This document shows, piece after piece, positions 10,508-61,198 of a DNA stretch of 64,000 nucleotides. Numbering within the stretch: the first letter of the stretch is position 1; every line of letters starts with the position of its first letter. The stretch spans positions 1,922,001-1,986,000 of the forward strand of contig CDPCPM010000370.1 in the NCBI GenBank assembly GCA_976551045.1. The letters are read 5' to 3'. Under the pieces are notes generated by a model. The model was not told the DNA's origin. It saw nothing but the letters and a program-made list of their open reading frames with translations, and ran no database searches. The position numbers were made by a program, and so were the translations under genes. Source of the DNA: Glaucostegus cemiculus (lineage: Eukaryota).

Positions 10508-10516
10508 TCACTTAAC
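10508..10516 (-). CDS. IGHM: IgH TM2 exon (VK-stop), intact copy
   Basis: Minus strand ccttcacag|GTT AAG TGA with canonical acceptor at 10517-10519. Confidence 0.75.
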   Translation of the reverse strand, partial: VK

Positions 10517-10651
10517 CTGTGAAGGAAGGATGGAGAGTAAATAAATACATTCATGATCTGCGACGTTAATGCAAGGGCTTGTAATTACGAAATAATCGAC
10601 TTTTGTCCATCACTTTCAGATCAGGTAGAAGAGCGAGTGGAAGAAGCTCAC

Positions 10652-10687
10652 CTTCACCAGGGGCAGGGCAGCGCCGTAGACTATACT
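10652..10687 (-). pseudogene. Truncated duplicate of the TM1 exon 3' end (SIVYGAALPLVK|gtgag)
   Basis: Paralogous to the end of TM1 at 11170-11205. 5' two-thirds of the exon and its acceptor are missing. Confidence 0.75.
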
Positions 10688-11037
10688 GTCTCAGCGTGTA
10701 GATGCTTATGGAACATATGCTTGTGTATGTTTGTGAACAACTGCATTTTAACCGCGTATCACTGTCTGCAGTGTTCAGCATATTTTCAGTGATTGATGCA
10801 AAGTTTGAAAAAAAAGATTTTTGGAAGGGATCAGCTTCATGAACCCGGTAAATATAATACAACTGGATGCATTAAAGTTGAAAGAAAGACACATCGTGCA
10901 ATTATAACCAAATCAGACTGACTGACTGAAAATGTGTTCATTACATTTTCCACTTCAGAATAGGGTATTTTCAGTCAGTTCAACTGAAATCTCAAGAGGA
11001 TAATGAGAGAAATCCAGGGGTTCGTAGATTCGCACCA

Positions 11038-11046
11038 TCACTCGAC
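11038..11046 (-). pseudogene. TM2 copy with mutated splice acceptor
   Basis: Minus strand ccttcacat|GTC GAG TGA: AG acceptor changed to AT and K changed to E. Flanks are paralogous to the 10508-10516 copy. Confidence 0.7.
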
Positions 11047-11169
11047 ATGTGAAGGGAGGATGGAGAATATAGAAGCATTCTATATTCTGCGACGGTAATG
11101 CGAGGAGATTTTATTCCAAAATAATGGACGTTTGTCAAATCAGGTGGAAGAATGCGTGGATTATCTCAC

Positions 11170-11297
11170 CTTAACCAGGGTTAGGGCAGCTCCGTAGCAA
11201 ATACTCAGGACGAACAGGATGATGAACGTGGAAGCGGTCTTCCAAATACTGTCTCTGTCTTCCCCCAGGTCTTCAATCCCGGTGTTATCAGTGAAAT
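11170..11297 (-). CDS. IGHM: IgH transmembrane exon TM1
   Basis: (D)FTDNTGIEDLGEDRDSIWKTASTFIILFVLSICYGAALTLVK with CART-type motif. Acceptor ttttcgtag, donor gtgag. Confidence 0.92.
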
Positions 11298-12900
11298 CTA
11301 CGAAAAGATGAAAGAGAAATAGATTCACAACTTTGTCCAGTCCAGGACATGGCTTCTTCATTTTCTTATTTACATTCAGTCATCGAATCTAATTTTCCAT
11401 GAACTTTCAGAGCTTCTCAACAACCAATGTCTGTTCCAGCAATAGAGGCTCATCATGGTCAGTTATATGTACAACTTTTAAATTCTATCATTGACTAATT
11501 TCAGTATATTATGAATAGGTTACTTCAGTGGTGTATGATTTGATGCGGGTTATTTGTGTGATGTTTTTGAAAAAAATATTTTGAAGTCGTAAACTTCCAA
11601 CAGATGCAAAACATTTAAACAATTAAATTACACTGAAAAATAAGGTGCTGCGCAATTTTCCGGGCCAGAGTGGAGATCCACAAAAACTTGCCATATAGCA
11701 ATATGTATTTAACATAGGTATCAGATGCCTTGTTTGTATAATAATTTAATTTGAGAAATGGATTGTCTAAATCTATTTCACTGAGAGGTCGTCTTCACTA
11801 TCGCGTGGTTAATTATGCCGGTATAACATTCAATGTGCCCTTCGTTTGACACGAACTGCGTTGACGCGAGTTTTTCCTGTACGTTTGTGTGACTGTTGAT
11901 CGAGTTTTGTTTCATGGAGATGCATGGTTGTTCATTTTTATATGTGTGTATGCACGCGCGTATGTGTGCGCGCGTTTGTGCATGCACTTAATGGATGTTG
12001 TTTGTGTGTGGTTTACGAGCATGTGCTGCTCATGTAGTGAAGCTTCGTGTTGTATGGTTCTACCATTTTGCATGTGTACACGCCTGATTGTGTGTGTGTT
12101 TTCCTGCTTCTCTATGCGCGGTCCTGTGAGTGGATTTGTGTGTTTTCACGTACATGTGCTTCTGATGTTGTGAGGCTTATGTTGCAGCACCAGTCAGCAT
12201 GAGCTTGCGTGTCAACTAATTTCCTGCGCAAATATATCCATTAATGTGCAATAATTGTGAGAACACCCCCGCGCGTGTGCATTGATGTGTATGACTGTGT
12301 GTGTGTATTTTTTGATGCGAGATTTAACAGTAACCATGCCCGTTTTATAAGCCTTTTCACGTGTTCTGTTCACGTTTCACCGAGTGTTTTATATGAATAT
12401 TCATCTTCACTTTCAACCTTTGATCATTGCTTGAATCAGAATGTACTTTTTTGAAACAGACTCAATATTTTAATACGCTTTCGGATTTGTTCACATATTC
12501 CTGCTCGTCTGCCCTCGGAAGGACTGTGTGCGGGGGTTGGGAGCAGAAACAACCTACACTAAGCCAGTAACCGACCGTCCACTAAATATCTTATCTTATC
12601 TGATCTTTAGACCTTACTCTATGCTCCGACTTTACTCTCATGTCCGTCATCATCTCAGTTGAAAAAACAATCTATCACAAACTGGAGTAAATTTGATGAT
12701 GAAAGGACACTAGAGAAGATAACTCCAGAGTTCCATCAGTCTCTAAGAAGAGATTTCTAGACACGTTGATCTCAAATGGCGACTCCTTATAGATGTTCTA
12801 GAACTCCCAGTTATCCACACACGAAAATATGTTGGCACAACTGAATCGATAGAAGCCTGTTTTTCTCCTAACTCTCATAAATGTAAGGTGAGCACTTACA

Positions 12901-12902
<2 letters not shown>

Positions 12903-12980
<78 letters not shown>
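12903..12980. repeat. (GT)n microsatellite
   Basis: Uninterrupted GT run. Confidence 0.98.
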
Positions 12981-12981
<1 letters not shown>

Positions 12982-13756
12982 TGTTTGCGTGTGTGTGTGC
13001 GCGCGTGGTCATGGACATATGAATATTCTTGCAAATGTATATCTATGTTTCAGCGTGTGGATCCTTACGAATGTTGTGCTTGTGTGTGGTTTATCACCTC
13101 CTTGTAAAACTGTATTTCGCCACCTGCAGTGTTGTGCATATTTTCACATGACTTGTGCAAAATCTGACAAATGTTTTCAAGAACGGTTCAGCTTCAAGAA
13201 CTCCGTGTCAGTTTGATATCTCTCATTGTGCTCCATGTCAGAATAATATTTTTTGTGATTGCGGCCATGTATTTCATAATGCTGAAGTACGATTGCGCTT
13301 CAGATTATGTGCAAAATATCGTCCCTTTTGCTGAAGAGCTGCTTGCAACAGTTGGTGGTGGGCGTTGTTTCTTTCCTACCCCCTAAAATGTGCGAGTGTA
13401 TGGTGGGGATTGATTATGAGTGCGGCGCTGCAGACAAAGTTCAGTAGTTGAGTCCCTTCTACAGTCCTGAATGGATGGGAAGTGGGAGCAAAGGGAAATG
13501 GGGACCCCGGAGTGTTGGCTCCGAATCCCGACAAAAACATCAATGGTTCTGAAATGTGTCCGTGGATGACACAATGATTGATAGTAAATTATTCCCATGT
13601 CGCTGGTGCGGTTGGTCCTAGGGCGCTGGTCTTACAGACAATCTCTTTGGCAACATTAAGAAAAAAATAATTAACTGGTCCTGGGAACAGTTCAAGATTG
13701 GAAGAAAAACGCATTTATTGGTATTTATTTGATAACTTAATGCATTCGAGTGATTC

Positions 13757-14148
13757 TCATTGACAAGAATTGACAGTGTCCAACAGTAGAATGGAAACAT
13801 TGACAAAACTAGGTTTACCGCTGGATCGATTGACCGTTCTGGCAATCGTCTTCATTGGGAGGCTTTCGTGTCCCACCACACAGGAGACAGAAGCTCCACT
13901 GTTCCACTTCTCCCTCCCGACGTATAATAAACTGTACATGAAGAAGGAGCTGTTGTCTTTCTCCGCCACCACATCGGTGTTCCTGTAGTTGCGCGAATCC
14001 ACCGGCTTGTCATCGACCGTCCACTTGAGGAAGATACGACGAGGGGAGAAACCTCTGACTAAGCAGGTGAGAGCGATGGATCTTTGAGCAGAGAGTTCAC
14101 CTGTCGGCGGAAAGAAGACAGAGATGGACGGTTCCCGAGGGTGTGTAT
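13757..14148 (-). CDS. IGHM: IgM CH4 exon with secretory tailpiece
   Basis: (D)[14 protein letters not shown]...[17 protein letters not shown]...[42 protein letters not shown]. Internal TM donor G|GTAAAC after 13819, NVS sequon, penultimate Cys, poly(A) signal near 13715. Confidence 0.95.
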
Positions 14149-14599
14149 CTGCGGAACAATTGGGAGAACTTTTGTCACACAGAGCAATGGAAGAGACGAA
14201 TGGCTGATAGTTTAAGGCATGAATGAACTGTGATTCGGACTGAATATTGAAGGTATAACACTTCCGAACCGTCGCCGCTTGTCAGCCCCAGACAGTCAGG
14301 CCTCTGCCTCTTTCCTCTTAAAGAGCTGGACGGTTTGCTTGAGAACAGCATGAAGTGTACAGCCAAAGGATCAAATCGTAAACCCACACTGATCCACGCT
14401 TGTTTTTATATGCTATCGTCACCTCCGGCCACTTTTTCCACATATCCATCTCATCATTCACTGAATTACTACACCATCGGAGACATGGTAAAACGCAGGT
14501 GAAACGGCAACAGTGATTATCGAGGTGTTCGGTTTTGCAGTATGAACTAAGAGAAGAAATAGATCTGCTGAAAATCTAAAATGAGAACATAACATTGAA

Positions 14600-16560: not shown

Positions 16561-16895
16561 ATTTGTCTCCTCATCCTCCAAATTATCTCCCTAACGCATT
16601 TCAAAGGATCTTCAAGGAAGCTCACCTTGTCATCATCGTAACCCTGACGTCATCCTAACACCGACATTCGCTTTGTCTTCTCCATGACTCGTCCACCTTC
16701 CGTGTATCTTATCACCTGTTTTATTTCCCCTTTACCAGGCAGGACAATGGCGTTTCATCAAACATTAGATATTAATTTCTTTCCACGGGTATCGCCTAAC
16801 CAGCTGAGTGTTCTCAATACATCGTTTTTCTCACTCTGAAAGAAAAAAATGCAACGGCGCACCCCGCCGTCTCCCATCCACCAGCCCCGCCTCAC

Positions 16896-22684: not shown

Positions 22685-22770
22685 CGTCAGTCACTGTAAG
22701 CATGGTGCCTCCTCCCCAGTAGTCCAGGTCTTCACAGTGTTCCGTTCCTGAGCTGCGTCACACAATAACC
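22685..22770 (-). other. IGHJ: JH segment (coding 22732-22685) with 5' 22-bp-spacer RSS
   Basis: ggttattgt-22 bp-cactgtg then (E)DLDYWGGGTMLTVTD|gtagg. Confidence 0.92.
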
Positions 22771-23086
22771 AGGTCTGCAAAGCAGAGGCAGAAAGCAAAA
22801 ATTAGTAGAAATTCGCACATTTCATAATGAAGGTAAAAACAATATTGAGCAATACGCATGATTAATGAGTTAAAGGAAGCATTCCAACAGATATAAAATA
22901 CTATTGTGCTGTTTATCAGACAGGTCCTTGAAATGCGACTTGTATCTTTGAAAGATAAATGATAAATAACCAAGAGTTATACAAACACTAAACTGTGCTA
23001 AGTTCGTCTCGGCTTAAAAAGAGCTTCATTGTGTGAACCATTCTGTTCACACATTGCACACTGACACACAACCACACGGTTTAGAT

Positions 23087-23153
23087 TCTTTTTGTGTTGA
23101 CAGGAACCATCGTGCGGTCCATCCGCACAGTGAAATAAGCTATGTCAAATACT
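23087..23153 (-). other. IGHD: DH segment (CGGATGGACCG, 23125-23115) flanked by two 12-bp-spacer RSS
   Basis: Plus strand: ctttttgt-12-catcgtg [D] cacagtg-12-tcaaatact. Confidence 0.8.
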
Positions 23154-23454
23154 CCACAGATTTTGTTCTGCTTAAGAATGATCAGGTAGAATTCCATCTC
23201 ACTCTGAGAATCACAATTCAGACACCACTGACAGAGGGCACCAATGGAATCTATCACTGTGTCCTGTTCACTGCCAAATATGAAGTTCAATATCATCTTG
23301 CTGCAGCACATGCTTTACGGCATAAATTGCACATAGGACAGTTACATTTTTTAACTGATCTATGTTATTTCAGGTGCTTAAATTCTATTTTAAATTTCTG
23401 ACCTCTGCCTCTCCTGTCCTTTTGGTAAGCTCAAACAGGAGGTACTGGATGCTG

Positions 23455-23492
23455 GGATTTTGTAGGGGGAGGTCACTGCTTGCAGTACTGTG
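23455..23492 (-). other. RSS 3' of VH (22-bp spacer)
   Basis: Minus strand cacagta-ctgcaagcagtgacctccccct-acaaaatcc. Confidence 0.85.
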
Positions 23493-23809
23493 TCCAACGT
23501 AGCTCCATCTCGTACAATAATAGACAGCGGTATCTTCTTCCATCAAGTTGTTCACGGTCAAGGCAAAAACACTTTTTGCAGTGTCTTTGTACGGAGTAAA
23601 CCGACCTTGGATCCCTGCGGCGAATAGCTGGCTTGGAGGAGAATGGTACAAAAGCAACCACTCCATACGCCGCCCGGGAAACTGTCGGACCCAGCCCATC
23701 CAGGAGTTGATAAGATCCACCCCGCTGGCTTTACAAGTCAGTGTGATAGTGCCTCTGGGTTTGGCGGTATCCGCCACCGGCTGAGTCAACAAGAGATTGG
23801 AGTGGACAT
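23493..23809 (-). CDS. IGHV: IgH V exon (elasmobranch IgM-type VH), probably germline-joined to D1
   Basis: LLTQPVADTAKPRGTITLTCKASG...WVRQFPGRRMEWL...RFTPYKDTAKSVFALTVNNLMEEDTAVYYCTR plus WSYVG before the heptamer. Acceptor tttgcttatag. Open frame. Confidence 0.93.
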
Positions 23810-23951
23810 CTATAAGCAAAAGAAAAGAAAAGATGTCTGCGAGTGATTACGGACACTTAATTTCACAGAGAAAAGAAGGTAAAGACATACGTATAAAATG
23901 AAAGAGAGCGAGTGAGAGAGAGAGAGACAACTCGGCATCAGAATTACTGAC

Positions 23952-23997
23952 GGGATACAAAAGCCAGAAACAGGCTCAGTGCAGTCGGCCACTTCAT
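23952..23997 (-). CDS. IGHV: VH leader exon
   Basis: ATG...MKWPTALSLFLAFVS, 46 nt, phase-1 donor gtcagt. Confidence 0.85.
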
Positions 23998-24084
23998 CCC
24001 GCTGGGAATCTTGCCAGGACCGATTCTGCACAGCTTCTCAATAAACCAGCTGCAGGGAAGTTGGATTGTGGAGTCTCCAGGAAA

Positions 24085-24120
24085 CATTTAAATACTCGAC
24101 AAACGGGGGCGGGACTTTCA
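24085..24120 (-). promoter_or_regulatory. Putative VH promoter: TATA-like tatttaaat, GC box and kappaB-like gggactttca
   Basis: Motifs lie about 90-125 bp upstream of the leader ATG. No octamer seen. Function inferred from position only. Confidence 0.4.
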
Positions 24121-25296
24121 CCGACGCCTATCGATTCAGGGGGCGGCTGCCAAAGCTCAGACGCCTCTCCCTGATCACGAACGGTCCTCACTCATACCTT
24201 ACACTTCTAAACTAGTGCAGACAGACTCAGGATTACCAGGTACTTACCACGCGGTTCACACAGGAACATCATCACAATCCTCGTTGTTATTTTCAACCGA
24301 GCGATGCACAGATATCAGAGTATCAGTCGAAAAACATTTCTGAAACAAATCATTGCCCTGCTATATCCCTACTCCAGAAACCCATATATGAGAACGTTTG
24401 TTAATAAAATCAGTTCAGAGTAAAATAAACTTCATGGCTCATGCCAGATGGTCTGCGAAGCTGCTAGTTTATGACGGACACGCAGACCAGCAGGAAAATA
24501 AAAGAAATCCAGTTGCTCCCCATCTTTTCCAAGTTCCTTTATTGTATTTCTCATCCATTTATCTCCAAAGTTCGTGGCATGCTTTTGGAGGGCGGGGAAG
24601 AGAATGGTCTTCAAATCTGTAAATCCTGCATACCGTTGCATATGAAAATTCTTTATCATTTGCTATCATAGTTAATTTGATCGGATATGGATCTGTTTAA
24701 TAATCCTGTACCAGTGGAATAAACAGAAATTTATTTATGTCTTCAACAGAATTTAAGGCATTGATTTGCAATACCACAGAATAACTATCACTGATTAAAG
24801 AGTTAAGCGCCAAGCATCTTCCTTCAATAGCGTCAGACCATCTCACACGAATATTGGCAACACGCCAATGAATGGCGTGACCTCCGATCGAGAAACGAAC
24901 ATCAGTTACAGGAAATGTGTGGACTTCGGAAAGAAACATACGAACTCATTCCTCGCTGCGAACTGCTTGGATGAAAGCCCGCTCAAACAGACAACATAGT
25001 CGGCAGGTTCTACAGTAAATTAAATTCATAATACTACATCTATGCATTTTCCATTGCCCAGTTGCGTTAGAAACCTCTAATGCCAGGTTAAGGAGCGAAC
25101 AGGCTTCACGCATAAAGTCAATAATGACAGTAACTTGAATGTAGTGCAAGAAACGATAGACACAGATAGAGGGAATCATAAATTGATGAGAGGGACAAAG
25201 AGAGAGATGGAGAGAGAAAATATTAGAGGGGCAATGGTCCGTCGTGTATGCATGTATATATATACATACAGAGCTAGATAGGTCGATAGATCGAAG

Positions 25297-25514
25297 NNNN
25301 NNNNNNNNNNNNNNNNNNNNNNNNNNNNNNNNNNNNNNNNNNNNNNNNNNNNNNNNNNNNNNNNNNNNNNNNNNNNNNNNNNNNNNNNNNNNNNNNNNNN
25401 NNNNNNNNNNNNNNNNNNNNNNNNNNNNNNNNNNNNNNNNNNNNNNNNNNNNNNNNNNNNNNNNNNNNNNNNNNNNNNNNNNNNNNNNNNNNNNNNNNNN
25501 NNNNNNNNNNNNNN
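25297..25514. other. Assembly gap
   Basis: Run of N. Confidence 1.
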
Positions 25515-26956
25515 CGATACTTCTCGGTGCCACTCTGCCTGCCAAACTTGAATGCCTGACCTTTCGGGACTCACAGTTATTCCGCCACTATTTCCTTCCC
25601 CTCCCAATCCCCCAAATCCCGTTGCGTTTATTGATATCACTTGTTCTGTTAATACTGCCCAGTCCAATGCCCAGGGTGGTGCAGTGATAACTTGCATTAA
25701 AAACTAAACTCAAACCAAATTCAGATAAACTATTAACATGCAATCAAGCCCGCGGGCGGAGATGTTTCCGTGGCACGATGAAGAAGTGAGGAACTTCATG
25801 TCTGGATTGACAGAAGAAAGCCAGTGTTTGGCACAATATAGAACCGGTTTTAAACGTTCAGCATTCGGACGCTATCCAGCCGTGTTAATAATCAAGTGAC
25901 GCTACCACAAATAGGGATCTCGGTCAGATGCAGAGATTAAATGCAGATGCGTCACAAAACAATGCAGTGCAATGAGAATGTTTGGTCCAGCGTGTTGTTT
26001 TGATCCAAATTGCACTGGCTGAGATGATGGTGCCAAGGATCAATATAAATATTGAAAGAAATAACTGAGAACAGAAATAATTGCCCGGGCTATGAGGAAA
26101 GCAACGTGGCATGGGAATAAATGCAGAATTCCTTAATGAGCATGAAGTACCACAGGAAATTCATGGGTTGCTGAACGTCCATGGGTCTCTATCTTGGATT
26201 TAAGTTTATCGTCATGTTTGTCTGTTCACCTGAAGATTTTGTGAGTGACATCGGTATGAACGCATGCAATGTCTGATAACAAACGATGTTGTTTCATAGA
26301 AAGGAATGTGAAACATTTTCCAAACGAACTTAACATTTTAGGAAATGTTTGACTGATATGAGAATAGAGTCCATCTTTCTTTATTTGTCTCATCGTGGAA
26401 GAGAACATTATAATTTGAAAACAATGTGGCTGAAGTAAGCTGTTGAGAGATTTGCATTTCTATTTTGTTATTTTGGTTCTTTAGGGGAAACATTGACTCT
26501 GTTTTTTGTCCCTCAGTGAAAGAATATTGGTCTGGGGTTTCTGAATTCAGTGTTGAATTAAATCCGTTAGTTAGTGTTTTTCATCTGTTTATAGAACAAC
26601 AGAAACAGGTCCATGAAGGTACTGATCGATGAGACTCAAATGGTAACGGATTTTTTTGAGGACACTGATAACGGGTGCAAAGCCAACTGTTTTTTTGTGA
26701 CAATAATGTTATTTTATTTTGTACAAATAAAATTGACCTGCTTTCTCACCAAAAGAGTTAAAGTTTCAATTCACGAATGTCTCTGTCATTCCGCAGCTAA
26801 AATCAATGGAACATATCTTTGTGGAGCGCAATGGATTGCCAGGAAGGTTTTACACATGTGGCACAAACATAACCAAAGGAGAGATTTACACAAACATAAC
26901 CAAAGGAAAGGCCAGGCGCCTTCCACAGATCCCCGTTTAACTCGAATCACAAATTG

Positions 26957-26960
26957 CACA

Positions 26961-27006
<46 letters not shown>

Positions 27007-27174
27007 GCACACACCCATACATACACACACACACACATTTCTGTTGCAGAAGATCCAGTTCTTGCTTGACAAGCATTTGATTCTGTCTCTTATTATCATA
27101 ATGCTCCGTTATGACTCCGTGTCACATGGGACATAACGTCTGTCTGTCTCTCTCTCTCTCTCTCTCTATCTATC

Positions 27175-27217
<43 letters not shown>

Positions 27218-27220
27218 GCC
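26957..27220. repeat. (CA)n and compound (TC)n/(TATC)n microsatellites
   Basis: CA run ~26962-27037, TC/TATC run ~27140-27218. Confidence 0.95.
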
Positions 27221-30200
27221 TCTATTTCTGTCTCTCTCACTCACCCACTCTCACTCACTGAAACTACACTGTATCTCTTTTCATCTCCATTGCACAAGTC
27301 ATACTTTCGGCTGTCAAATGAGCACTACACTCCCCATTCAGTATAGTGAACACTGCTACAGAAAGTGATATGTTAAGCCTCGTATCATTGAGTTATGAAT
27401 CTGTCTTGTCGGGTTATTTTTCAAAATATATATGGTTACAATGAAATATACCCCATTCTTCTTCGATATTTGTTTGACCCGTGAATCAGTAAATGTTACA
27501 TTATGCTCTGTACAGCCCATAGTACAGGAACTTGCAATTGTGCTTGCGGGTTGTTAAACCAATTAGGCCTGGGAGCGCATCTCAGCAGAGATATATACTG
27601 ATTTTGGGGGTAGGTGGGTGTGACCGCAATGAAATCTCGTAGGAAAACGAAGTTACCGTGCAGCGCTGGCATGGGTGTGAGAGGAGATGTGAAAGAAATG
27701 CACAGCGGAACTTCCATTTTATTTCATGTTTATGAATACACAAGACCGTGTTTATATCTGTATCACATTATGCCTGAGATCTAAAAATATTAGACTGAAT
27801 AATTTCTCTGGTAATATTCCACAGTTGCTTTAATGGGGCATGAAGCATTGGCACAACAGATGACAAACTTACCTGGTTAAAGTGGGTAAGTCCAGTAGAA
27901 AGGTCAGGCAGGAGCAGGGCAGTGATAGAAGATGATCGGATCTGCTATACCGCATGTATTTTGATACAGACAAGCCTGGCAGTTAAGCGAGGTGAACTTG
28001 GGGCCTGGATCGACTGGTGGGATTGTGATATTTTAGATGTTGTGCTTAAATTCTTGCGCGATAGGCAATACTGGTCTCGGGGTAAAAATGCTTTCTGTGT
28101 GATACAGCTGAAGGAAAGTGAAAGGGGGACTTTTGATATTGACTGACCGGAAGATCATGGCAGCACTTTGATAAGATAATCACTGAGAAAACTTCAGGGA
28201 GGCCAAATGATCAGAACGACAAATAGGAAAAGGAAGCTCGTTTTCCCGAGTAAAAACGTGATGTGTTCATCGTTGGAATGCAGTAGAAATATTATATTTT
28301 GTTTAAAGAATGTGGCATTTTCAAACTTAGTGCTACAAACGGATTCAGGATCCTAGAAAACAAAACACAGGAAGTTAGTGGAAGGTGGAAGAGCTCATTT
28401 GGGAGGCTGCTTGGATGACATTATGTTGCAAGTGGAATTAAGTATACAGTTTGGGAAGTTTTACAGTGACCTGATGAAAACACAACAAGAAAGTTTTGTA
28501 TACCAGACATGAGGCATGGTATTCTGGTATTGCGATTTATTCAATGCAGTATACTTAATAATTTGATATTTGGTTTTATTCACATTCCCAATCTGCTCTC
28601 CCTATTGACATTGACCGTGAATTCACATTGTCGGAACAGCACCAAGAAATTGTTAATCAGAATGAACAATCGCGTAACTAGTTGAGGGAATGATACATGA
28701 GTTGCTGGGCGAATTTGTAGTCATTATGTCGTATTCGCCATCGCTCGTCTTTTCTCTCTGAGCAGTGAGCTACAAACAGTTCATTAATTTCGCTGCACAG
28801 AATCGATAGGTTTTTCCGTTCAGTTACATTTTGACCTCTTGGCCGTGCAAGACTGAAATGCTTCACACCACCAGAAAAGGGAGAGAGAGGTGGACTGAGA
28901 TGGAATTGGAATAAAACTACTTTCCCGACGATTATGTGGGTTCATAAACAGTAAGATATATTACCTGGAGCTAACCGAATCAAGGGATATGTGTAGTGAA
29001 CAGAAGGGACTGAAATTGGACGATTATCCATGAATGTTGAATAGTGGAACATGCTGAAGAGGACGATTGTCCTTCCACGCAATATTTATTATATTGCTTG
29101 CCTTATTCTTATCAACAACGCTCCATATAGATATGATGACAGTCAATCTCCCACTGCGTTCTGCAAAACTTCAAGGGGACAAAACGTTAATTAATGACAA
29201 TTTTGCATTTCACATATTGACACTTCGAAGTTCCACTTTTCTATTGTAATTGCCCTGCACTGTACATGGGATGTTCAATGGTTCGACCATTTATCTGATT
29301 CCACGAGAAATGCATTGCGAGAAGAGTGATGGTAAATGGAACGATAACATTTAATTTTATTCCCTTCAATAGTCAGCCTAAATTCTGTGGCTGCAGTCCA
29401 ACATTCATTGTTCGCTCTCTTTGTAACTGACAGGAAACATCTGTGCATTCTGTAACCAGAAATAAACGAGTTGTTTCCAGCCCATGACTCAGAATGAGAC
29501 AGTCGCCCTTATGAAGGAGACCAAACACGAGAAAAATCTGCCCAGCAACAGATGTCTCATACTGCCAGCAAGCATTCTAATTGGTTACACAGTGCATCAT
29601 TCTAATTGAATTATTGACAGCGGGAATTGTGAGCGAGTGGACACTGGACAATTTGGATTCACTGATATTAGCCACCAATCATGTAATGTGCCTCACAGAC
29701 TCAGATGCTCTATTGAATCGGAGTTTGCCGACGATTTGACCTGGACCCATAAAGGAGCTCACATCCTTGGAATGATTGGTAGTCGCACACCACATAGTCA
29801 GGGGCCCTTCCCGATGCATGAAGGCCGGTGCTGTCCACGATCGGTCCTCACAAACATTAACCCTATGCTGATGGAGGGAACTCCACTGTGTGGAGGTCAA
29901 TGAGCGAATGCAATCAGTTGTGCCTGAAAATATAAAACATGGCTGGAACAAAAGCGGAGGTCTGGAGTGAATGTTCATCAGCCACAGAGCACAGAGATTT
30001 TACGATCCGAGCAATGCAAATACAGTGTATCCCCCAAGTTACCTCCTGAACCAATCACCTCTCAACCACCGCTAACAGCTGAGATTGACAGTCATGCTGC
30101 CTTCGCCCACACTCTGCGTTGAGCGAAGCGTTGAAAATATCAGGGTGAAAGATTTAAATCCATCCCACAAATAGCAGTTGTGTTGTATGTTTATTTTTCG

Positions 30201-31368
30201 TTTTTTCGGTTAATGGTATGACATTCCAATGTAAAATCACTTTGATTGCAAACAGTAACATTGATTGGGAAAAATAATTGGGTAATGTAAACTAAGCTTT
30301 ACAATCATTTTCGATCCCGTCACTTGGAGGGCAATGAAAGCCCTGTGAACTGCATTATCCTGTACCTTCAAATACTCCCGAAACAGCAGAAGTATTGTTG
30401 AAATACTGATCGAAAATTGCCTTCCATCAAATGCTTCCAGGGCAGGGCAAGACTCGATTATACGCAGAGTAATTGACACTATCCCGTGAAATAGCATGGC
30501 GCAGGGGCTGCTTCCAAAACACTCTCCATTAAATGCGCCCTGGGCAGAGGCAAAATGCATTGCATTCAAAGTGAGGTTACTGCACAGGTCCTGTCAAAAT
30601 CTGCAAAATTTGATGCGGAATAGATAACGAGTCTTGCATAATATCTCATCAGTTATTCACATGGATCGTATAGAGAATAAACCCTCCCTTTCGTGGACGT
30701 CGAAGGGAAAAAAGCTTCATATAAAACCTTTTCAACAAGTACTCGCAGTGGCTCGACAACAGCTCAGATCCAGGACGTTTTTCCATTTGATAATTCAATA
30801 CGTAGTTCATGTATTGGTGCAAACCTGCATCAGTACCCTTCCATCAACTCTCCACAAGGCCTGAGATTTTGGCCGACACATCTTTCTCTCAGACATTGAC
30901 ATCTGACATTTGGGTAAATATATTGCTGTGGCAGGTTTAATTTGGTAGGCCGATAAAAGAGGGATATAGAGAGCGGGCTGGACAGCAGATCATCAGGCAC
31001 TCGCATTCAGGTGAGCATTGGGAAATTTACCAATCTGCTGTATGAAAATTAAAGCATTTCTTTCTCCTATAATAATCGAAGTGCATCTGAAAAGTTCACC
31101 TTTGCTGCTGGACCGGCTGAATATTTGCATCTTAACTTTCCTAAATTCTGTTCTGCGTTGGCGGGGACAAATTAATTCTGTTTCTGTCTCTCTATGTTCT
31201 GATCTGGAACTTCTATTTCTGAGATTATTTGCATAAATGCTTCCGTGGCATCCATCTGTGCTCAGGACAGAAATACACACATTACTATCGTTCCTTATTG
31301 AATTATCTTAACTGACCAGATGTGTTGTCTTCCGATTTTTGACAACTGGTGGAAATGACTTCAAATTT

Positions 31369-31517
31369 NNNNNNNNNNNNNNNNNNNNNNNNNNNNNNNN
31401 NNNNNNNNNNNNNNNNNNNNNNNNNNNNNNNNNNNNNNNNNNNNNNNNNNNNNNNNNNNNNNNNNNNNNNNNNNNNNNNNNNNNNNNNNNNNNNNNNNNN
31501 NNNNNNNNNNNNNNNNN
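31369..31517. other. Assembly gap
   Basis: Run of N. Confidence 1.
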
Positions 31518-32649
31518 ATTTATCCACCGTGGAAAAAAGGGACGCCAAGAATTGGTCGCTTCTGCGAGTTCTCCAGTGCGACATTTCTGAGCAGGGTACT
31601 GTTCCACCGCATATACATTTACAGCAAGTGTTACACATTTAAACTCAGCAAATCCAATCTTTGGCACTGGAGAATTGCCGAGAGATAATAACGCCTCACC
31701 TTTTATCCACCATAGAAGTTAATATAAATACTAACATTTGGGAAGAAGGTCTCAAATTTGATCGTTCTGCGATGTGAAAATAAACAGTTTGCAGCCACTA
31801 TGGTGGTTTCTGAAACGTATCCGCAATCAGAATGTGATGACAATATTAGCAAAATAAGCCCCCTTTTTAAAGGCGCACAACTATCGAATAAGTATTACAG
31901 AGTGACAGATGTGGACATGTGAAAATGATAATGGTGTCGGAGAATGTAAACAGAGGAACAATCTAGTCCTGGGCCCTGTCTCACTGATACTACAGAGGTC
32001 TGTGTCACGGTTTAATTTGCAGTAGGCTAGTCTTAATGCCGCATAGAAACAACAAGAAACCAGGCCCTTTGGCCGAATTCGGCCATGCCAATGTAATTGC
32101 AGTCGATTCTGTAGTTGCTGAGAGAACACTTGGCCTTCGCTGAGTTATCGCCGAAGTCGAACTTGTGGCGGTTCACATTATCGTTGACGTTCGCTGTGTC
32201 ATTACAATAGGCTTCATGCCCGTTTTGAAAACAACAAAGTTTTGTATATTTTTTTTCAACAGAACTGAGCTCTGCTTCTCTTTGTTTGAGACCAGGGCTG
32301 AATTCAGTTCTCAATTTATTAATCGCTGTTTACAAAGTTATTGCTGTCGCTGAACATACCACAGTGCACCCAGACCCTCTTTGAACAAATAGTTCCGGCC
32401 ATAGAGTCAGCCTTGTTCTGGTCACATTGTACTTGTTCTTCTCATGTTATTATACCACTCCATGCCACGGCTGATACTATTCCAGATTCTGTCTCTGTTT
32501 AAACTGTGCCACTGTTTTCAAATTTGACTTTATTTTTTTGTTTATATTAACCGAGGCCCTATTTGTATAAATTACAGAAGGTGCTATGTGTTTTCAACTG
32601 CTCTGGACGCAAATTTCGGCTAATATTGTGCTGTCTCCCTTCTTTCCTC

Positions 32650-32990
32650 TTCCATTGGGTAGAATATACAGGTGCCTGAGGGCAGGTACCATCAGACTTA
32701 AGGACATCTTCTACCTTACTGTGATAAAACTATTGAACGGTTCCCTTGTACAATGAGATGACCTTACGATATACCTTGTTGTGACCTTTCACCTTATTGC
32801 ACTGCCCTTTCTCTGTAGCTGTGCCACTTTACTCTGTACTGTTATTGTTTTTACTTGTACTACATCACTGCACTTTATGCTAACTCAATGTAACTGCACT
32901 ACGTAATGAATTGACCTGTTCGATCGGTTTGTAAGTCAGGTTTCTCACTGTACCTTGGTACAAGTGACAATAATAAACCAATCCAAAGAC
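32650..32990 (+). mobile_element. LINE 3'-end copy
   Basis: Highly similar to 59250-59570 (ctgtgataa..actatt, tgtaccttggtacaagtgacaataataaa). Confidence 0.75.
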
Positions 32991-35900
32991 CAACCAGACT
33001 CTGATTATATTACACTATGCTTACAAATTAATTATTTTTCTCATCATATTCATTACTTATTTAAAAGTCTCACTATGGCGTTGTTCATACTGAAGCAAAC
33101 CGTCCTTTAGTTTTGCCAGGCTTGCTCTCTGCTGGAATTACACTGTCCATTCCCACTTGTTGTGCATGCTCTTGACCAACCATTTGATAGAACTGCTTGT
33201 TTGTGCATGCAGCTGAAAAAAAGCGAGGACAGCAGGTTAACATCTCACCCACAAGACAACAAGACACTGTCCAGCAGTACTACCGCAGAGGCGTCGTCCT
33301 CGTTTGTGAGTCCCGGCCCTGGAAATGGAGCCCAGGGTCCCCACCAATCTCACACTGACACAGTCCATCTTGACCTCCTGCATTTAAGACGTGTCAGGGC
33401 CACTTCACTCGTGGTGTCGTGTTTCCACTGTAGTTGATCTTCAATGTGTTATCTGATATTCTTATTACCAAACAGAACGTCCCCAATCCATGTTTTTTTT
33501 AAACCTTTGATTCCGTCTGTGTTGACAACACAGGATTCGTCATTTTGTTCAAAGTTGCAGCATGGTTTCCCACTTGTATCATTGGATCAAACAACCTCTT
33601 TCTTTATTTACTCGGTTGCTCATGTCACTAGTTTTTTTACCCTTGGCTCTGCTCTCACTCCTCTCACAGAGAGAGGATACATCGGCTCCAGTCTCTGCCT
33701 CGCCAGGACTGAGATTGGCCTCAGCGATTGTAAGAGAATGCCCTGTGATTCAGATCGCGTAACTTGTCAACTCTATAGTTACATCAAAACATGTCGCAGT
33801 GGAGATTAAATAGCTGCATTTTCCCAGAAATACCTCTGTCTGTTCAACCGACAACAGAAAAACTAATATTGCACAATGTAGTGACATTTCTCTCTTTTAA
33901 ACGTCAATTCACAACTCCCATGTCAATGAATGTGAGCAGCTCCTTGTATTATATTCGGCCCTGGTCTATTTATATCAAACAATATTCGGTATATATACAG
34001 CACACTGGCTTCTCTTTGAAGTATAGCTGACCCAGTCTTTGCTTGAATGAAACCAGGCGATTTTTCAATTTTACTAGCCTTGAACATATTTATATTATCA
34101 CAGCACTGTCAATATTTACCCCATTGGCATTTTCTGCTGATACTGTATATCACATCTTCCAAACATATTCTTGTGAGACATGCAATGAAACGTACTCTTT
34201 AATGTTATTCTAATTCTTCATTACACTTCATTCCGAGGAATATTAGGTAAAGGTGCTCACGAGGCGCAGAGAAAAAGAAAGCGTTGATCGGCTAGTCCCA
34301 TTATGCACCATTTCGGCAATGTGTCCTCCTGCAAAGCCGTCCTTTGGAAACTTTGTCACTCTCCGATGCGAGCATTAGGACCCTGCGGCTTCACAACTGT
34401 CAGAATAATGTCGAAGGCTTCCGTTCAGAAATCGGACACAAGAGCCCTGCAGCTGCCGGCCTCATCTGTTGTGAACTGTTCGTTGCAGGACTTTGGATTT
34501 TGGACGGACTTGAGAACACTGTGTCTGCCCAGCTGGTGGAGCTGTGAGCTCATGGTGTCCACTCATACCAGTCTGAATCACATTCGGCCTGTTTGTTTAT
34601 ATTTTGCACATTGCACCATTTGTTATTCCACAATTGTCTCTACATACTTTCTTGCTGTACTCAAAAAATGCCAAGGAATTGAGTATGCCTTGCTTCCAGA
34701 CTGACCCTGGGATTACTGATGAGGCCAATGTTGGAACGGTACTGGAGGTGGCTGACGGCACCGACGGGTGTAGGTCAGTAAAGTGGCGTACTCCTCCACA
34801 ACTTACACAATTAGTTCTTGTCTCTGAATACTTATCCCTGTCCCAGTTCGTGTTACATTGTATCATGTACATGCAGAAACACTTCAGGAATGATCTCCTG
34901 ATGATGTAATATTTATGCTAAACCTGTTCTGACTATATAATTGCTTAAACACAGCTATATAAGAATATGTTTCGTTCTACTAGACGCTCTTTCTGTTTGA
35001 ATTACACGAGGCTTGAAAGTTTTCAGATCACCTTGTTTCTACATGTGATGGACTGCACCCTGTCACTTTGTGTCACAAGGGCCCAGTGATGTCCATATAT
35101 TCTAAATCCCGGCCTCTTCGGGGATTTTGTGGTACCCTGTCTCAGTTTCTATTTTGCATTGCCTTCTGAGCCGGTTTGCATTTCTGCAGCACTGTCTCTG
35201 TACTTATTGTACTGCATTCAGTCTCTGTCTTACAGATGGCCCTGTACCTATTTATACCACAGTGTACCCTATCACCAGGCATATAAGACTTCATTATGAC
35301 ATTATTTTTGTCTCACAACTCCCTTTCAGATAATCTTTTCACATTACATCTTGCCTCTCTATGTAATGTCATTGTTACAACTCCAACTACATTATTTACG
35401 GTCCAGAACCGGTAAATGCCACAGCGAGCTTCTTTCCAATTATGTTTGGGCACCCATTTACACTGCGGATATTACCCAAGGACGCGAAATTACTTTCATC
35501 ACATTCGACATTGTCTCCATGGTAACCCCACTTGACCATGATTTAATACATCTTTCAGAAGGCCCTCTACCTGTTTGGCCCTGTCTTTGCATATGTTCAG
35601 ACAGGTCCCTTACTCCGTTAACGATATAAAGGGTTCTGACCCCATATGTACCAAAAAAGGCCATATTTCCTTTTATATTAACTGGACACCATTCTGTTTA
35701 AAGGTCACAGGCTCTGTGTCGGTTTCAGTCACAATCGGTATTGGCACCATGCACATTGTTCTGGAGCACGCCCTGAATTATGTAACAGAAGCGTTGAACA
35801 TGTACGTACAATATTAAGACTTGCCTTCGGACAGGTAATATTGGGGCTTTAATTGTCTCTTTCTCATAAGATCCTGCAATAGTTCAGATCAGATCGTTCC

Positions 35901-41501: not shown

Positions 41502-41540
41502 GGTTTTTGTACAGCTCTCTCCCTGCTCTGTCTCACTGTG
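41502..41540 (-). other. Consensus 23-RSS of the supporting V-delta
   Basis: Minus strand cacagtg-23 bp-acaaaaacc, a perfect match to consensus. Confidence 0.95.
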
Positions 41541-41852
41541 CTGCGCGTGTGCTCAGTGCACAGAGATACACAGCCGAGTCGCTCAATTGCAACTTGGAGA
41601 TTGTTAACCTGCTGATTTCCTTGCCAGCATCGAGTGTGTCAGAACTTTCGACCACGATGGAACTTTCTTCATCATCATCTCCACCAGACTCTCTCGGCAG
41701 AAGGTATTCCGGAGCCTGGCCGTGGTCCTGCCGGTACCAGTCTACTGTGTACGAACAGAACTTGGAATATTCGCAAATGAAAGCAGCCATGCCATCAACA
41801 GTCGTTTTGTGTAAGGATGGACTCTGGAACACATTGAATCTCGCTTCAGTAT
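41541..41852 (-). CDS. NAR-TCR supporting TCR-delta V exon (no leader found)
   Basis: (D)TEARFNVFQSPSLHKTTVDGMAAFICEYSKFCSYTVDWYRQDHGQAPEYLL...ISRLTISKLQLSDSAVYLCALSTR. Extra Cys in CDR1. Phase-1 acceptor tatttcag compatible with the NAR J donor. No leader exon seen upstream. Confidence 0.9.
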
Positions 41853-45053: not shown

Positions 45054-45091
45054 GGTTTTTGTACCGCGGGAAGACCAGTCCCATCATTGTG
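45054..45091 (-). other. RSS of NAR-TCR V (22-bp spacer)
   Basis: Minus strand cacaatg-22-acaaaaacc. Confidence 0.9.
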
Positions 45092-45379
45092 ATTCGTTCC
45101 AGTACTCAGCTTTACAGTAATAGATGGCGCTGTCTTCAAATCTCAGGTCCCGAATTTTCAGCGTGAAGGTCTTTTCTGCTTTATTCGTGGACAGAAGAAA
45201 TCGATCCCCACCCGTAATCCGCTCCCAGCCTGTGCCAGACTCTACATGCTTGAAGAAACTTCCGGATTGAAAAACATGCCAAGAATGAGCAGACTGGAAA
45301 CGGCAGGTGATCGTGAGAGATTGGCAGACCTTCCTGGTCACGGCTGTCGGGCTCTGGATCACCGACTGACTGAAGGTAC
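45092..45379 (-). CDS. NAR-TCR V exon (IgNAR-like V lacking CDR2)
   Basis: TFSQSVIQSPTAVTRKVCQSLTITCRFQ...WERITGGDRFLLSTNKAEKTFTLKIRDLRFEDSAIYYCKAEYWNE. NAR-type short FR2-FR3 and YYCKA, extra FR1 Cys, acceptor tttccag. Confidence 0.92.
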
Positions 45380-45665: not shown

Positions 45666-45669
<4 letters not shown>

Positions 45670-45717: not shown

Positions 45718-45720
<3 letters not shown>

Positions 45721-58181: not shown

Positions 58182-58227
58182 ATGCTTTCTTCCTGTTTAC
58201 TGTTGATCCTAATGGCGCTGCTGCCAG
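58182..58227 (+). CDS. TCR V-alpha/delta leader exon
   Basis: MLSSCLLLILMALLP, G|gtgag. Confidence 0.85.
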
Positions 58228-58312
58228 GTGAGTCTCAGTGCATGTGCTTAGTTTATGTCCTGTAGGTCACAGTCATTCACAGGAAGTTTGAACTCTAAAT
58301 ATTTTGTTGCAG

Positions 58313-58619
58313 CAGCGAGTGCCGAAGATACGGTTTCCCAGGATCAGCCTGAACTAACGGTCCAGGATGGACAGACCATAATAATGAACTGCACTTACTC
58401 CACATCGTCTACATTTCCCTACCTTTTCTGGTACATACAGCGTTCCGGGGAAGCTCCGAGATACTTACTGAAGAGATTCGGCAAGGACGGGAAGGATCAG
58501 TCTTCAGATCTCCCTCCCCGTTTCTCTGCCGATTTGGACACGCAAAACAAATTATTTTCTCTGACTGTCTCCGGCGCAGTTCTCTCAGACTGTGCCGTGT
58601 ATCTTTGCGCTCTGAACCC
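58313..58619 (+). CDS. TCR V-alpha/delta segment 1 (followed by 23-RSS at 58620-58658)
   Basis: EDTVSQDQPELTVQDGQTIIMNCTYSTSSTFPYLFWYIQRSGEAPRYLL...LSDCAVYLCALNP. RSS cacacta-23-acaaaaact. Confidence 0.92.
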
Positions 58620-58939
58620 CACACTATGACAGGTGCGCAGACAATCGATACAAAAACTGTCAGGGAATCTCACAACCTCTCAACAGTTAACATCTGGGAC
58701 ACAGATTGTGATTGTATCACAAAAAATATTACTCTTACCACATCACTTAGGGATTATAACAAACTTTGCATTGAAGAAAAAACGCGTAATAATATAAGAA
58801 GGTAATTTAAAAAAGTTGAAGTAAGTTATTGCAACTCGTGCCCTCTCCGTCATTCAGTAAGGGTTGAGTGACATTTACCTCACGGCCACTAGATGCACAA
58901 GTTTAATATCTTTGATTATCTTAACATATATGGATCACC

Positions 58940-59570
58940 ATTTTGAACATAATCAGAGGCTGAAGAAAATTGGTATGTCCGCATCGACTGTCACCAACTT
59001 TTACTGATGCACCATAGAAAACATCCTATCTGGATGTATCACGGCTTGGTATGGCAACTGCCCTGCTCAGGACCGCATGAAACTGCAGAGAGTCGTGGAA
59101 ACAGCCCAGCGTACTAGGAACACCAGCCTCCCCCCTTTGGACTCTGTATTTACCTGTTATTGTCTTGGTGTAGCGGACAGAATAATCAGGGACCCCACTC
59201 ATCCGGGACATTCTCTCCTATCTCCTCTTCCATTGGGTAGGAGCACGAGAGCACGTACCACCAGTCTTAAGGACAACTTCTACCCCACTGTGATAAGACT
59301 ATTTAACATTTCCTTTATACAATGAGATGGACCCTGTCCTCACGATCTACCTTGTGTGACCTTGCAGCTTATTGCACTGCAATTTCACTGTAGTTGCGAC
59401 ACGTTATTCTGCACTGTTACTGTTTTTTACTGTACTACATCAATGCACTTTGTACGAACTACGTAACTACACTGTGTAATGAAATGACCTGTATGATCGG
59501 TTTGTAAGACAAACTTTTCACTGTACCTTGGTACAAGTGACAATAATAAACAAATACCAATACCAATAAT
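58940..59570 (+). mobile_element. Rex1/Babar-type LINE 3' fragment
   Basis: IENILSGCITAWYGNC, KLQRVVETAQ...RIIRDPTHPGHSLLSPLP...RTTSLKDNFYPTVIRL. Tail aataataaacaaataccaatacc. Confidence 0.8.
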
Positions 59571-60284
59571 CAAGTCTGTTCCACAGGATTTTCGCAAATA
59601 ATGACCATCCATTCACTTCTCATCTAAAACTGATTTATAAACTCTTATTGATTGACCATGACCGTGATTCTCTGCATGCTAGCTTGGAAGCATCGACTAC
59701 AAATCAACCCATAAAGTCCGATAAGGATCCTCTTCGTTACAGTCACTCTTCAGAGCACTGACAGAAACAAACACAGTTTGCACAATTTCTTCTCAGACCA
59801 TAAAGCTGTATTTCCAGAAATGAATTGCACGATTTTTGCACTCTCTTCAACATAAGCTTAACCTTCTATTAGTAGGCATTACTTTATCTAAGTCTCCGTA
59901 TCGGCAAAGTCCACAATAATTGCTGAAGAGGATCTCCACTCTTGTTCACAAATATACTTGCAATAAAGGCGGACACACCGTTTGTATTCATCCTCCGTCC
60001 AAACTTTGCACTGCCAGCGCCGCAAATCGAAATTAGAATTAACGATACCCCATGCTACATGGGCAGTGTGTCCTTTTAAGAAGAGCGATTTAATTCCTTG
60101 AAGGGTCATCGTCTGAATGGATACTTCTTTTTCTCTATCCCGAGATGCATTCCGCTCTCTTGAGCATTTGTAATATTTTCCAGTTTAATTTCAGATTGCA
60201 GCGCACGCGGTATTTTCAGTTCAGTTTAAATTTCCATCCATTTCACCACTGGAAAGAGGAACGCTAATCGCGGGCCGCACGGAC

Positions 60285-60400
60285 GTTGCGACGTCATAAA
60301 GCATGGAACAAAGTATCTGTCTGTTGATTGGTTGAATTGCGGACAAAAAAAAAGATAATCAAAAGTATAACGTAACCAATCAGCCAGGAGCCAATCAGAT
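60285..60400 (+). promoter_or_regulatory. Putative TCR V promoter: CRE-like cgacgtca and CCAAT boxes
   Basis: gcgacgtca near 60288 and ccaatcag at ~60376 and ~60391, about 170-270 bp upstream of ATG 60561. Confidence 0.35.
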
Positions 60401-60560
60401 ACCTGAGGAAGAATGCACGAGTCGAGCTGATTGGATGCCACCTGTTTCCACAGGCAGGAACGCTCCAACCAGCAGTGGCGCTGGATTTAACTCCACCTCC
60501 CTGAAAAATAAGGCATTTTCCAGCTCAAATTCTCTTGAATAGGGTCCACATTCTGCAGGC

Positions 60561-60606
60561 ATGGTCAATCTTTATTCACTGTTCACGGCAGCAGCTCTCC
60601 TGACCG
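60561..60606 (+). CDS. TCR V-alpha/delta leader exon
   Basis: MVNLYSLFTAAALLT, G|gtgag. Confidence 0.85.
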
Positions 60607-60788
60607 GTGAGTTCACTCGTGGCATGCACATACGATTCGGGTATCTTCGGTGTTCTGTTCAACTGTCAATCCAACGAGCAACCGAATGAAAATAGTGTTG
60701 ACAGCGAGAGATAAAGTCCGGGGGCGTTGGTGTGGCAGACAAAACGAAGTGAGGATATTTCATTTAGTTTATTTCTTTGCTCTTCCAG

Positions 60789-61089
60789 GATATTGCCGGG
60801 GAGACTCCGTTTCACAGACCCCGGCTGCGATCAACGTGCGAGAAGGGGGCAATATCCAGTTCCACTGTAATTACACAACAACCAGTAGCGATCCGAACCT
60901 TTTCTGGTACCGTCAGCATTCGGATGGTTCCATTGAGTTTCTCCTGCACAGACACAGGTACAGCGTCGAGTCGAGAAATACGGGGAGCCGCTTCTCGGCC
61001 ACTCTCGATCATTCGAAGACAACCGTCCCGCTCTCCATCGCTGAAGCCCAGCTGGAAGACTCGGCAGTGTATTACTGCGCCCTGAGACC
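60789..61089 (+). CDS. TCR V-alpha/delta segment 2 (followed by 23-RSS at 61090-61128)
   Basis: GDSVSQTPAAINVREGGNIQFHCNYTTTSSDPNLFWYRQHSDGSIEFLL...LSIAEAQLEDSAVYYCALRP. RSS cacagag-23-acaaaaact. Confidence 0.93.
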
Positions 61090-61198
61090 CACAGAGGCAA
61101 AGAGTGCGGCTGAACCTGCACAAAAACTCCTCTGCGTTGTCAGAGACGTCTGCAGCTGTGAACAGGAAAGATGCATTTGGGCGGGGACGCCGCGTTTC

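Follow-up and report, generated by a model that had tools for sequence, protein, structure and literature searches.

The window, a 64,000-nt stretch of Glaucostegus cemiculus contig CDPCPM010000370.1 (C370; positions 1,922,001-1,986,000), carries a cartilaginous-fish IgM cluster on its minus strand, in which every exon used is bounded by AG/GT. Its parts are as follows, in window coordinates.

23997-23952, minus: IgM leader exon, 46 nt, open, AG/GT by exon scan
23809-23493, minus: IgM VH exon, open; the last ~15 nt (23507-23493) are a germline-fused D1 remnant
23455..23492, minus: RSS after VH, 22-spacer, inherited from the 3' side of D1 (flank comparison)
23115..23125, minus: D2 segment with a 12-spacer RSS on each side (segment reading)
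22732-22685, minus: JH, open; 22-spacer RSS at 22733-22770
19936-19640, minus: C-mu1 (CH1), open; Pfam C1-set
17770-17459, minus: C-mu2 (CH2), open; Pfam C1-set
17204-16896, minus: C-mu3 (CH3), open; Pfam C1-set
13757..14148, minus: C-mu4 (CH4, 14148-13819) and secretory tail with penultimate Cys; secretory stop at 13757
11297-11170, minus: TM1 exon, open, AG/GT
11046-11038, minus: TM2 copy at the usual place; acceptor AT instead of AG, dead
10334..10687, minus: local duplicate of the TM1 end, intron and TM2; 258/340 (76%) identical to 11205-10856
10516-10508, minus: intact TM2 inside the local duplicate; AG acceptor present

An IgM minicluster with VH fused to D1

This anatomy is that of an elasmobranch IgM minicluster: a cassette with a single VH, D segments, a single JH and a single C gene, along with four C1-set C-mu domains, a mu-type secretory tail with its penultimate Cys, and TM1 and TM2. 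VH matches the Pfam V-set and CH1-4 the C1-set, all above the curated cut-off. In a PDB search with CH4 plus tail, IgM constant-mu chains lead the matches that cover the tail; the first-ranked entry, an IgG hybrid, is matched across several domains. Leader plus V, the secreted form and the membrane form all translate with no internal stop. A TATA-like element lies 97 nt upstream of the leader, and no Ig octamer was found within 300 nt upstream of it. AATAAA-type signals lie 27 and 37 nt past the secretory stop, and an internal donor in C-mu4, at 13819, would serve the membrane form. The RSS order, 22 / 12-D2-12 / 22, is 12/23-compatible through V-D-J. The initial annotation described all IgM exons as open with canonical splice sites, and the exon scan agrees, with two corrections: the identity of the D segment and the copy of TM2.

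The first correction arises from a germline V-D1 join that had been overlooked. VH is fused to D1 in the germline and the cluster configuration is VD-D-J; the segment annotated as “D” is D2, because D1 is already joined to VH. VH ends in ~15 extra bases, followed by D1's 22-spacer RSS. The VH 3' flank scores 162-279 against eight of nine D1 flanks and 32 against the ninth, and 24-33, which is background only, against all 12 V flanks. It is also identical at 252/363 positions to the D1-D2 interval of cluster 15 on the same contig, and a split-cluster control in the flank test behaves in the opposite way. Hence, V is fused to D with D's 3' RSS and flank kept, as in a partly germline-joined IgH. 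A candidate extra D at 23268-23262 was rejected, since in other clusters the DNA that aligns with it is plain spacer between D1 and D2. Partly germline-joined IgM clusters, VD-J and VD-DJ, are described for sharks and skates in sections of PMC5192425 and PMC4279169. As in those clusters, the V-D1 fusion here retains D1's downstream RSS. Unlike the VD-J and VD-DJ forms in those sections, the window cluster is VD-D-J, and five germline states coexist side by side on C370: 10 split, 3 V-DD-J, 1 V-D-DJ, 2 VD-DJ and 1 VD-D-J.

The second correction affects the membrane form. An open TM2 with canonical splice sites does exist in the duplicate, while the copy at the usual place, with its AT acceptor, does not fit that description. 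The membrane form would be made by splicing TM1 to the duplicated TM2, and is less certain than the secreted form because the usual-place acceptor is dead, the polyA signal is distant (the nearest beyond TM2 is ~1.5 kb off at 9031-9026, with none within 1.2 kb) and the TM1-TM2 intron contains cryptic AGs. That intron is 653 bp here; in 15 of the remaining 16 IgM clusters it measures 125-140 bp.

The IgM family within the TCR alpha/delta locus

The neighbours of the IgM gene in the window belong to T-cell receptor families.

45522-45480, minus: NAR-TCR leader, open
45379-45092, minus: NAR-TCR V, open; 45054..45379 with its 22-spacer RSS
44712-44698, minus: NAR-TCR D with 12/12 RSS, open
44307-44258, minus: NAR-TCR J with 23-spacer RSS, open
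41852-41541, minus: leaderless supporting V-delta, open; consensus 23-RSS, 41502..41852 with it
58182-58658, plus: TCR V-alpha/delta gene (L, V, 23-RSS), open; inverted relative to C-delta
60561-61128, plus: TCR V-alpha/delta gene (L, V, 23-RSS), open; inverted relative to C-delta

The cassette consists of a NAR-like V, a D and a J of its own and, after these, a leaderless supporting V-delta with a 23-RSS, and it lies upstream of D-delta, J-delta and C-delta. The best single-domain PDB matches of its V are VNAR domains, and the supporting V-delta splices in frame to the NAR-TCR J. A V-D join in this V was considered and rejected, as a 22-spacer RSS after an identical V ending is the usual state of these cassettes. 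NAR-TCR (Criscitiello 2006) is described in passages of PMC12227049, PMC5931798 and PMC6795676 as a NAR-like V, D and J plus a leaderless supporting V-delta. The anatomy here is identical to that description; C370 has at least 24 such cassettes, 17 of them inverted relative to C-delta. The placement of the IgM gene about 17.5 kb downstream of a co-oriented NAR-TCR cassette, with TCR V-alpha/delta genes further along, was borne out: the cassette is intact and shares the minus strand, the IgM ATG is 17.5 kb away, and the two V genes are open on the plus strand. Co-orientation itself carries little weight: although 13 of the 17 IgM clusters face D-delta, the same is true of just 7 of the 24 cassettes.

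The same mixture extends across the contig. A single 3.07-Mb contig, of which ~0.78 Mb was read directly and the remainder through searches, holds 17 IgM clusters (14 open; the defect in cluster 8 is a CH2 frameshift), with the NAR-TCR cassettes interleaved among them and TCR V genes on their flanks. There are 17 CH4 exons at 71-100% identity and 17 VH on C370, and no CH4 match above 41% outside it (150 scored of 480 candidates in the assembly). In a DNA search for IgM, with 18 of 18 candidates scored, all 20 matches were the C370 clusters; IgH-type V and C matches other than IgM sit on separate contigs. That all IgM is nested is a statement about this assembly. The TCR-V matches (150 of 150 scored, from 587 candidates) lie on C370 between 272 kb and 3.03 Mb, extending past the IgM family in both directions. 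D-delta, nine J-delta, C-delta, ~80 or more J-alpha and C-alpha occupy 230-54 kb of the contig. The initial annotation had asked whether the delta segments lie on the scaffold; they do, co-oriented with the IgM gene and 12/23-compatible, and D-delta, with a 5' 12-RSS that matches the consensus perfectly, is 1.72 Mb downstream of it. A pattern search of the assembly gave six matches, five of them off C370. The constant part of a NAR-TCR-type chain (P0016) shares 51% identity with the C-delta exon. A representative C-delta search found 37 proteins; nine were read, and the ones carrying an Ig-like V (P0022, P0025) fall outside the IgM VH clade. Weak homologue searches, which covered longer proteins only, scored 0 of 47 candidates for the supporting V-delta and 0 of 28 for C-delta. 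Free Ig-like V genes lie at 610, 1131, 1137 and 1191 kb, each with a 23-RSS and, in the stretches read, no other RSS.

The window IgM gene shares a duplication with the neighbouring cassette. A ~36-kb block containing both is colinear with C370:1308911-1343306 at 64-76% identity. The IgM and NAR-TCR pairing is best read as an old segmental-duplication unit in a mixed locus, and not as a dedicated two-gene device.

Probable use in B cells and possible use in T cells

What is the window gene for? The features point to an intact IgM minicluster with VH and D1 fused, one of 17 nested among TCR alpha/delta V genes, and its probable product is ordinary IgM in secreted and membrane forms. A role as B-cell IgM is likely on the evidence of selection. 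The own-branch C-region dN/dS is 0.31-0.42 in four of four triplets (upper 95% bootstrap limits 0.48-0.69), although a value below 1 is an average over the entire branch and is compatible with recent silencing. Pairwise C-region dN/dS is 0.28-0.38 against 13 same-length paralogues, with clusters 6, 8 and 9 left out for differences in length. In B cells, RAG would make two joins, VD1 22-RSS to D2 12-RSS and D2 12-RSS to JH 22-RSS; with VD1 pre-fused, CDR3 would begin at a germline-set stretch that could still be trimmed.

T cells could use the same VH. It is linked to D-delta with a compatible RSS, and its joining to C-delta would be permitted by the 12/23 rule. The VD1 22-RSS would join the D-delta 12-RSS by deletion, as any co-oriented V of the array could. 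Regular dual use, with VH-D1 normally contributing to the IgM and TCR-delta repertoires alike, is compatible with an ordinary IgM gene; the extra element is routine T-cell use. Such use is possible but rather unlikely. In its favour, VH shares D-delta's contig and strand, the D-delta 5' RSS is perfect, the local NAR-TCR V genes also use a 22-spacer, and passages of PMC12227049 and PMC5931798 report joins of IgM/IgW V to TCR-delta as common in sharks. However, D-delta lies beyond 15 other IgM clusters, the free Ig-like V genes could supply Ig-type TCR-delta domains, and B-cell use alone would explain conservation of the C-mu exons, such that T-cell use is not needed to account for the gene's intactness. 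The initial annotation proposed a dual-use B/T locus centred on this gene, in which VH would serve both C-mu and C-delta. Part of that interpretation stands, since the cluster is intact, contiguous and within a TCR alpha/delta locus with C-delta on the contig; its singularity does not, given that most C370 IgM clusters are open and a similar layout is listed by Flajnik 2025 (Table S1).

Ig-TCR-delta chimeric rearrangement and TAILV have reportedly been found in nurse shark, by Criscitiello in 2010 and Deiss in 2019. The case here is similar in that an IgM VH can reach D-delta with a compatible RSS and the array has free Ig-like V genes. Here the donor would be an entire gene in cis, which would make the join an ordinary deletion within a single chromosome.

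It is improbable that the IgM gene has been recently silenced, or is kept solely as a TCR-delta V donor, with C-mu exons yet to decay. The VH branch is long (in a protein V tree of the clusters other than the broken 9 and 10), the usual-place TM2 acceptor is dead, and 3 of the 17 sister clusters are broken, all of which would suit decay. Against this are the intact frames and splice sites of all exons used, the low own-branch dN/dS, and the retained secretory polyA signals and TATA-like element. A false join of the IgM cluster to the TCR region, invited by the two N stretches between IgM and cassette in the window (25297-25514 and 31369-31517), across which a contiguity check had been advised, is very unlikely indeed: the genome copy of window 23001-33000 has zero N and 0 mismatches at non-N places (count only), no N occurs in the ~779 kb read from C370, both flanks of both stretches are colinear with the N-free paralogous block, and the same IgM/TCR mixing is listed for two other species.

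Relation to known loci and functional implications

Interleaving of IgM, NAR-TCR and TCR V genes is already known, and this case is unusually well resolved. Flajnik 2025 (PMC12227049) describes an elasmobranch antigen receptor complex (AgRC), in which IgM genes share a linkage group with TCR alpha/delta and have TCR V and NARTCR V exons between them; IgW, IgNAR, UrIg2 and PSMB5 also belong to the group as described. In its Table S1, nine rows for C-bearing IgM genes on great white shark chr27 stand among rows for NARTCR and TCR V, while on Atlantic stingray chr26 four IgM rows lie upstream of both TRDC and TRAC. The table draws on gene models, of which many carry the label pseudo or missing V, and the article itself speaks only of some V exons between IgH clusters. 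C370 is like the AgRC: IgM is linked to TCR alpha/delta, TCR V genes lie between clusters, and IgM clusters are mixed with NAR-TCR. It goes beyond the table in that all IgM found in the assembly lies within a V array on one contig, resolved to segments and RSSs, and in the co-duplicated NAR-TCR and IgM block.

What would such an arrangement mean? Taken alone, the window gene appears ordinary, a likely working and partly pre-joined IgM. A broader and still tentative reading, which is more doubtful than not, is that the IgM locus is the TCR alpha/delta V region: all clusters would be nested in it, IgM and NAR-TCR blocks would co-duplicate, and open VH genes, germline-joined ones included, would feed TCR-delta by cis V-to-D joining. 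If so, shark “trans-rearrangement” would be cis, and the choice between B- and T-cell RAG targeting would be resolved gene by gene over ~17 kb. That IgH and TCR-delta are linked in sharks and rays has been published before, on the basis of gene models in which many parts are absent or uncertain. The segment-level map of C370 lets the IgM VH genes be told from one another by sequence and orientation, by how far each lies from D-delta and by its state of germline joining. Set against this map, repertoire data could reveal the antibody genes that T cells take up and any influence of distance, strand or a D already joined in the germline. The map also bears on the way a single locus is opened, one gene at a time, in B and T cells.

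A likely functional IgM gene with a germline V-D1 join

The IgM exons of the window lie on the minus strand where the initial annotation placed them (leader 23997-23952 to TM2 10516-10508), with AG/GT ends. Its reading of the cluster holds for the most part, but it overlooked that VH is pre-joined to D1 and that the acceptor of TM2 in the usual place is AT, with the intact copy of this exon sitting within a local duplicate (76% identical). No internal stop interrupts the translated leader and VH, the secreted chain or the membrane chain. Pfam finds one V-set and four C1-set domains, and the PDB matches covering CH4 and the tail are led by IgM chains. C-region dN/dS on the gene's own branch is 0.31-0.42 (four triplets), showing purifying selection there. 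Judged from its sequence, this is likely a functional, partly pre-joined IgM.

The window VH is joined to D1 in the germline. Split IgM clusters on the contig read V-23 / 12-D1-22 / 12-D2-12 / 23-J, in steps of ~390 bp. The window VH instead carries ~15 extra bases and a 22-spacer RSS, and a single step of 367 bp leads to the 12/12 D. DNA beyond its heptamer scores 162-279 against eight of nine D1 flanks (32 against the ninth, from divergent cluster 17), versus only 24-33 against all 12 V flanks; a control from a split cluster gave the reverse. By their RSS lists, the 17 IgM clusters comprise 10 split, three V-DD-J, one V-D-DJ, two VD-DJ and one VD-D-J, the last being the window cluster. Partial germline joining of IgM clusters is described in excerpts of PMC5192425 and PMC4279169.

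Other loci have related features. In IgM cluster 5 (C370:1025001-1045000, L035), all frames are open and the D1 3' heptamer lacks CAC, so this D1 is probably unusable on its 3' side. NAR-TCR cassettes at 780 kb (L086) and 1905 kb (L084) are apparently germline V-D joined with a 12-RSS, and one at 1350 kb (L085) shows an apparent V-D-J join. IgH-type V genes on other contigs (L097, L098, L102, L104 and L105, on C257, C117, C868 and C165; probably IgW) also have germline joins, two of them apparently complete V-D-J.

The IgM family among TCR genes

On contig C370 (3,070,252 bp), of which the window covers 1922001-1986000, a CH4 search found 17 copies (71-100% identity) and, elsewhere in the assembly, no match above 41%, among the 150 of 480 candidates scored. 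Each copy has a VH partner 8-14 kb away (17 in all), and a CH2-CH3 DNA search gave 20 matches, all in the same 17 clusters (18 of 18 candidates scored). The family spans 364 kb-2.04 Mb; L-V, C, secretory and TM frames are open in 14 clusters, and clusters 8, 9 and 10 are broken. IgH-like matches on other contigs are putative IgW or IgNAR. All 150 TCR-V matches scored lie on C370, between 272 kb and 3.03 Mb, so TCR V genes stand on both sides of the IgM family. At least 24 NAR-TCR cassettes (24 of 24 candidates) occupy 540 kb to 2.01 Mb. The TCR-delta setting presumed by the initial annotation is supported by minus-strand D-delta, J-delta and C-delta on the same contig.

TCR delta and alpha segments on C370
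229.9 and 229.4 kb, minus strand: two D-delta, 12/23 RSS
After D-delta, minus strand: nine J-delta
198 kb (TM exon 196 kb), minus strand: C-delta
C370, minus strand: ~80 or more J-alpha (67 and 14 further)
56 kb, minus strand: C-alpha

The putative C-delta is named from its position, its TM motif (which we take to be of C-delta type) and the 51% identity that its exon shares with the constant region of an unnamed chain of NAR-TCR type.

Within the window, the NAR-TCR cassette has open L, NAR-like V, D, J and leaderless supporting V-delta; 17.5 kb separates the end of this V-delta from the IgM ATG. Both TCR V genes further along are open, on the plus strand. A minus-strand frame at 61500-61075, tail to tail with the second, is open and shows a V-like motif at its end; it received no score in the V scan and is possibly a decayed V. 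A second 23-spacer RSS lies 60-63 bp past the first behind the supporting V-delta in 10 of 21 cassettes scored (e.g. L064, L068, L074), with recognizable remnants in most of the others; the window copy (41478-41440) is degenerate. This RSS may offer a second rearrangement attempt.

Several features concern the V genes and promoters. The conserved framework-2 Trp gives way to Leu or Phe in clusters 1, 2, 4, 5, 7 and 10-14 (10 of the 16 VH that could be read at this site); the window VH retains Trp. No Ig octamer occurs within 300 nt upstream of the leader in any of the 17 clusters, and in 11 of them a TATA-like element lies around -89 to -99; elasmobranch IgH promoters are not known to carry the octamer. 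The VH of cluster 17 (C370:2019001-2039000, L057-L058) falls apart from the other IgM VH and together with three Ig-like V genes that stand free in the TCR V array (610 kb, the 1131/1137 kb region and 1191 kb; support 97/96). This suggests that the TCR-delta V pool has exchanged V with an IgM cluster. Two Ig-like V of another divergent type adjoin D-delta on opposite strands (237-260 kb; L022, L025).

Contiguity and block duplication

The window's continuity across its N stretches (25297-25514 and 31369-31517) is upheld: the genome copy of 23001-33000 is N-free with 0 mismatches at the window's non-N positions, and ~779 kb of C370 sequence read contains no N. Furthermore, window 9055-45620 is colinear with N-free C370:1308911-1343306, at 64-76% identity either side of both stretches. 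That segment carries IgM cluster 7 together with a NAR-TCR cassette in the same orientation; thus the pair is an old duplicated unit. Three NAR-TCR cassettes that are close relatives of one another (1567, 1635 and 1717 kb; support 100/100) interleave with related IgM clusters 10-13, suggesting a candidate younger block duplication.

The annotated arrangement is real and was for the most part read correctly, and its kind was already known. The text and Table S1 of Flajnik et al. 2025 (PMC12227049) link IgM, IgW and IgNAR to TCR alpha/delta, with TCR V exons amid IgH clusters, explain IgM/W V to TCR-delta joins by proximity, and list great white shark and stingray IgM amid NARTCR and TCR V rows; its figures and supplementary PDF may show more. 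Excerpts of PMC5931798 and PMC6795676 cover Ig-TCR-delta chimeras and NAR-TCR, and one of PMC3964593 covers Ig-TCR linkage in elephant shark; the portion consulted of bioRxiv 10.1101/2022.06.22.497154 held nothing relevant. The literature searched gave no statement of a whole IgM family within the V array or of NAR-TCR and IgM co-duplication, a weak negative since Deiss 2019 and Ott 2021, which bear most closely on the question, lay outside the search.

Use in B and T cells

How would the window gene be used? In B cells, VD1 would join D2, and D2 would join JH, followed by secreted IgM or by splicing to TM1 and the duplicate TM2. Use in T cells as well is permitted by the RSS sequences: deletional joining could link the 22-RSS of the window VH with the consensus 12-RSS at D-delta, which lies 1.72 Mb downstream. 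This would strip the allele of the window C-mu and 15 other IgM clusters. Conversely, a joined VD1-D2 would keep only a 12-RSS. That signal would be incompatible with the 12-RSS at D-delta or J-delta, making the two uses mutually exclusive per allele. Routine dual use is disfavored by that long distance and by the free Ig-like V genes in the array. Orientation lends it little support, with 17 of 24 NAR-TCR cassettes pointing away from C-delta. The main value of this work is the contig-wide map, which opens the question of dual use to direct testing.
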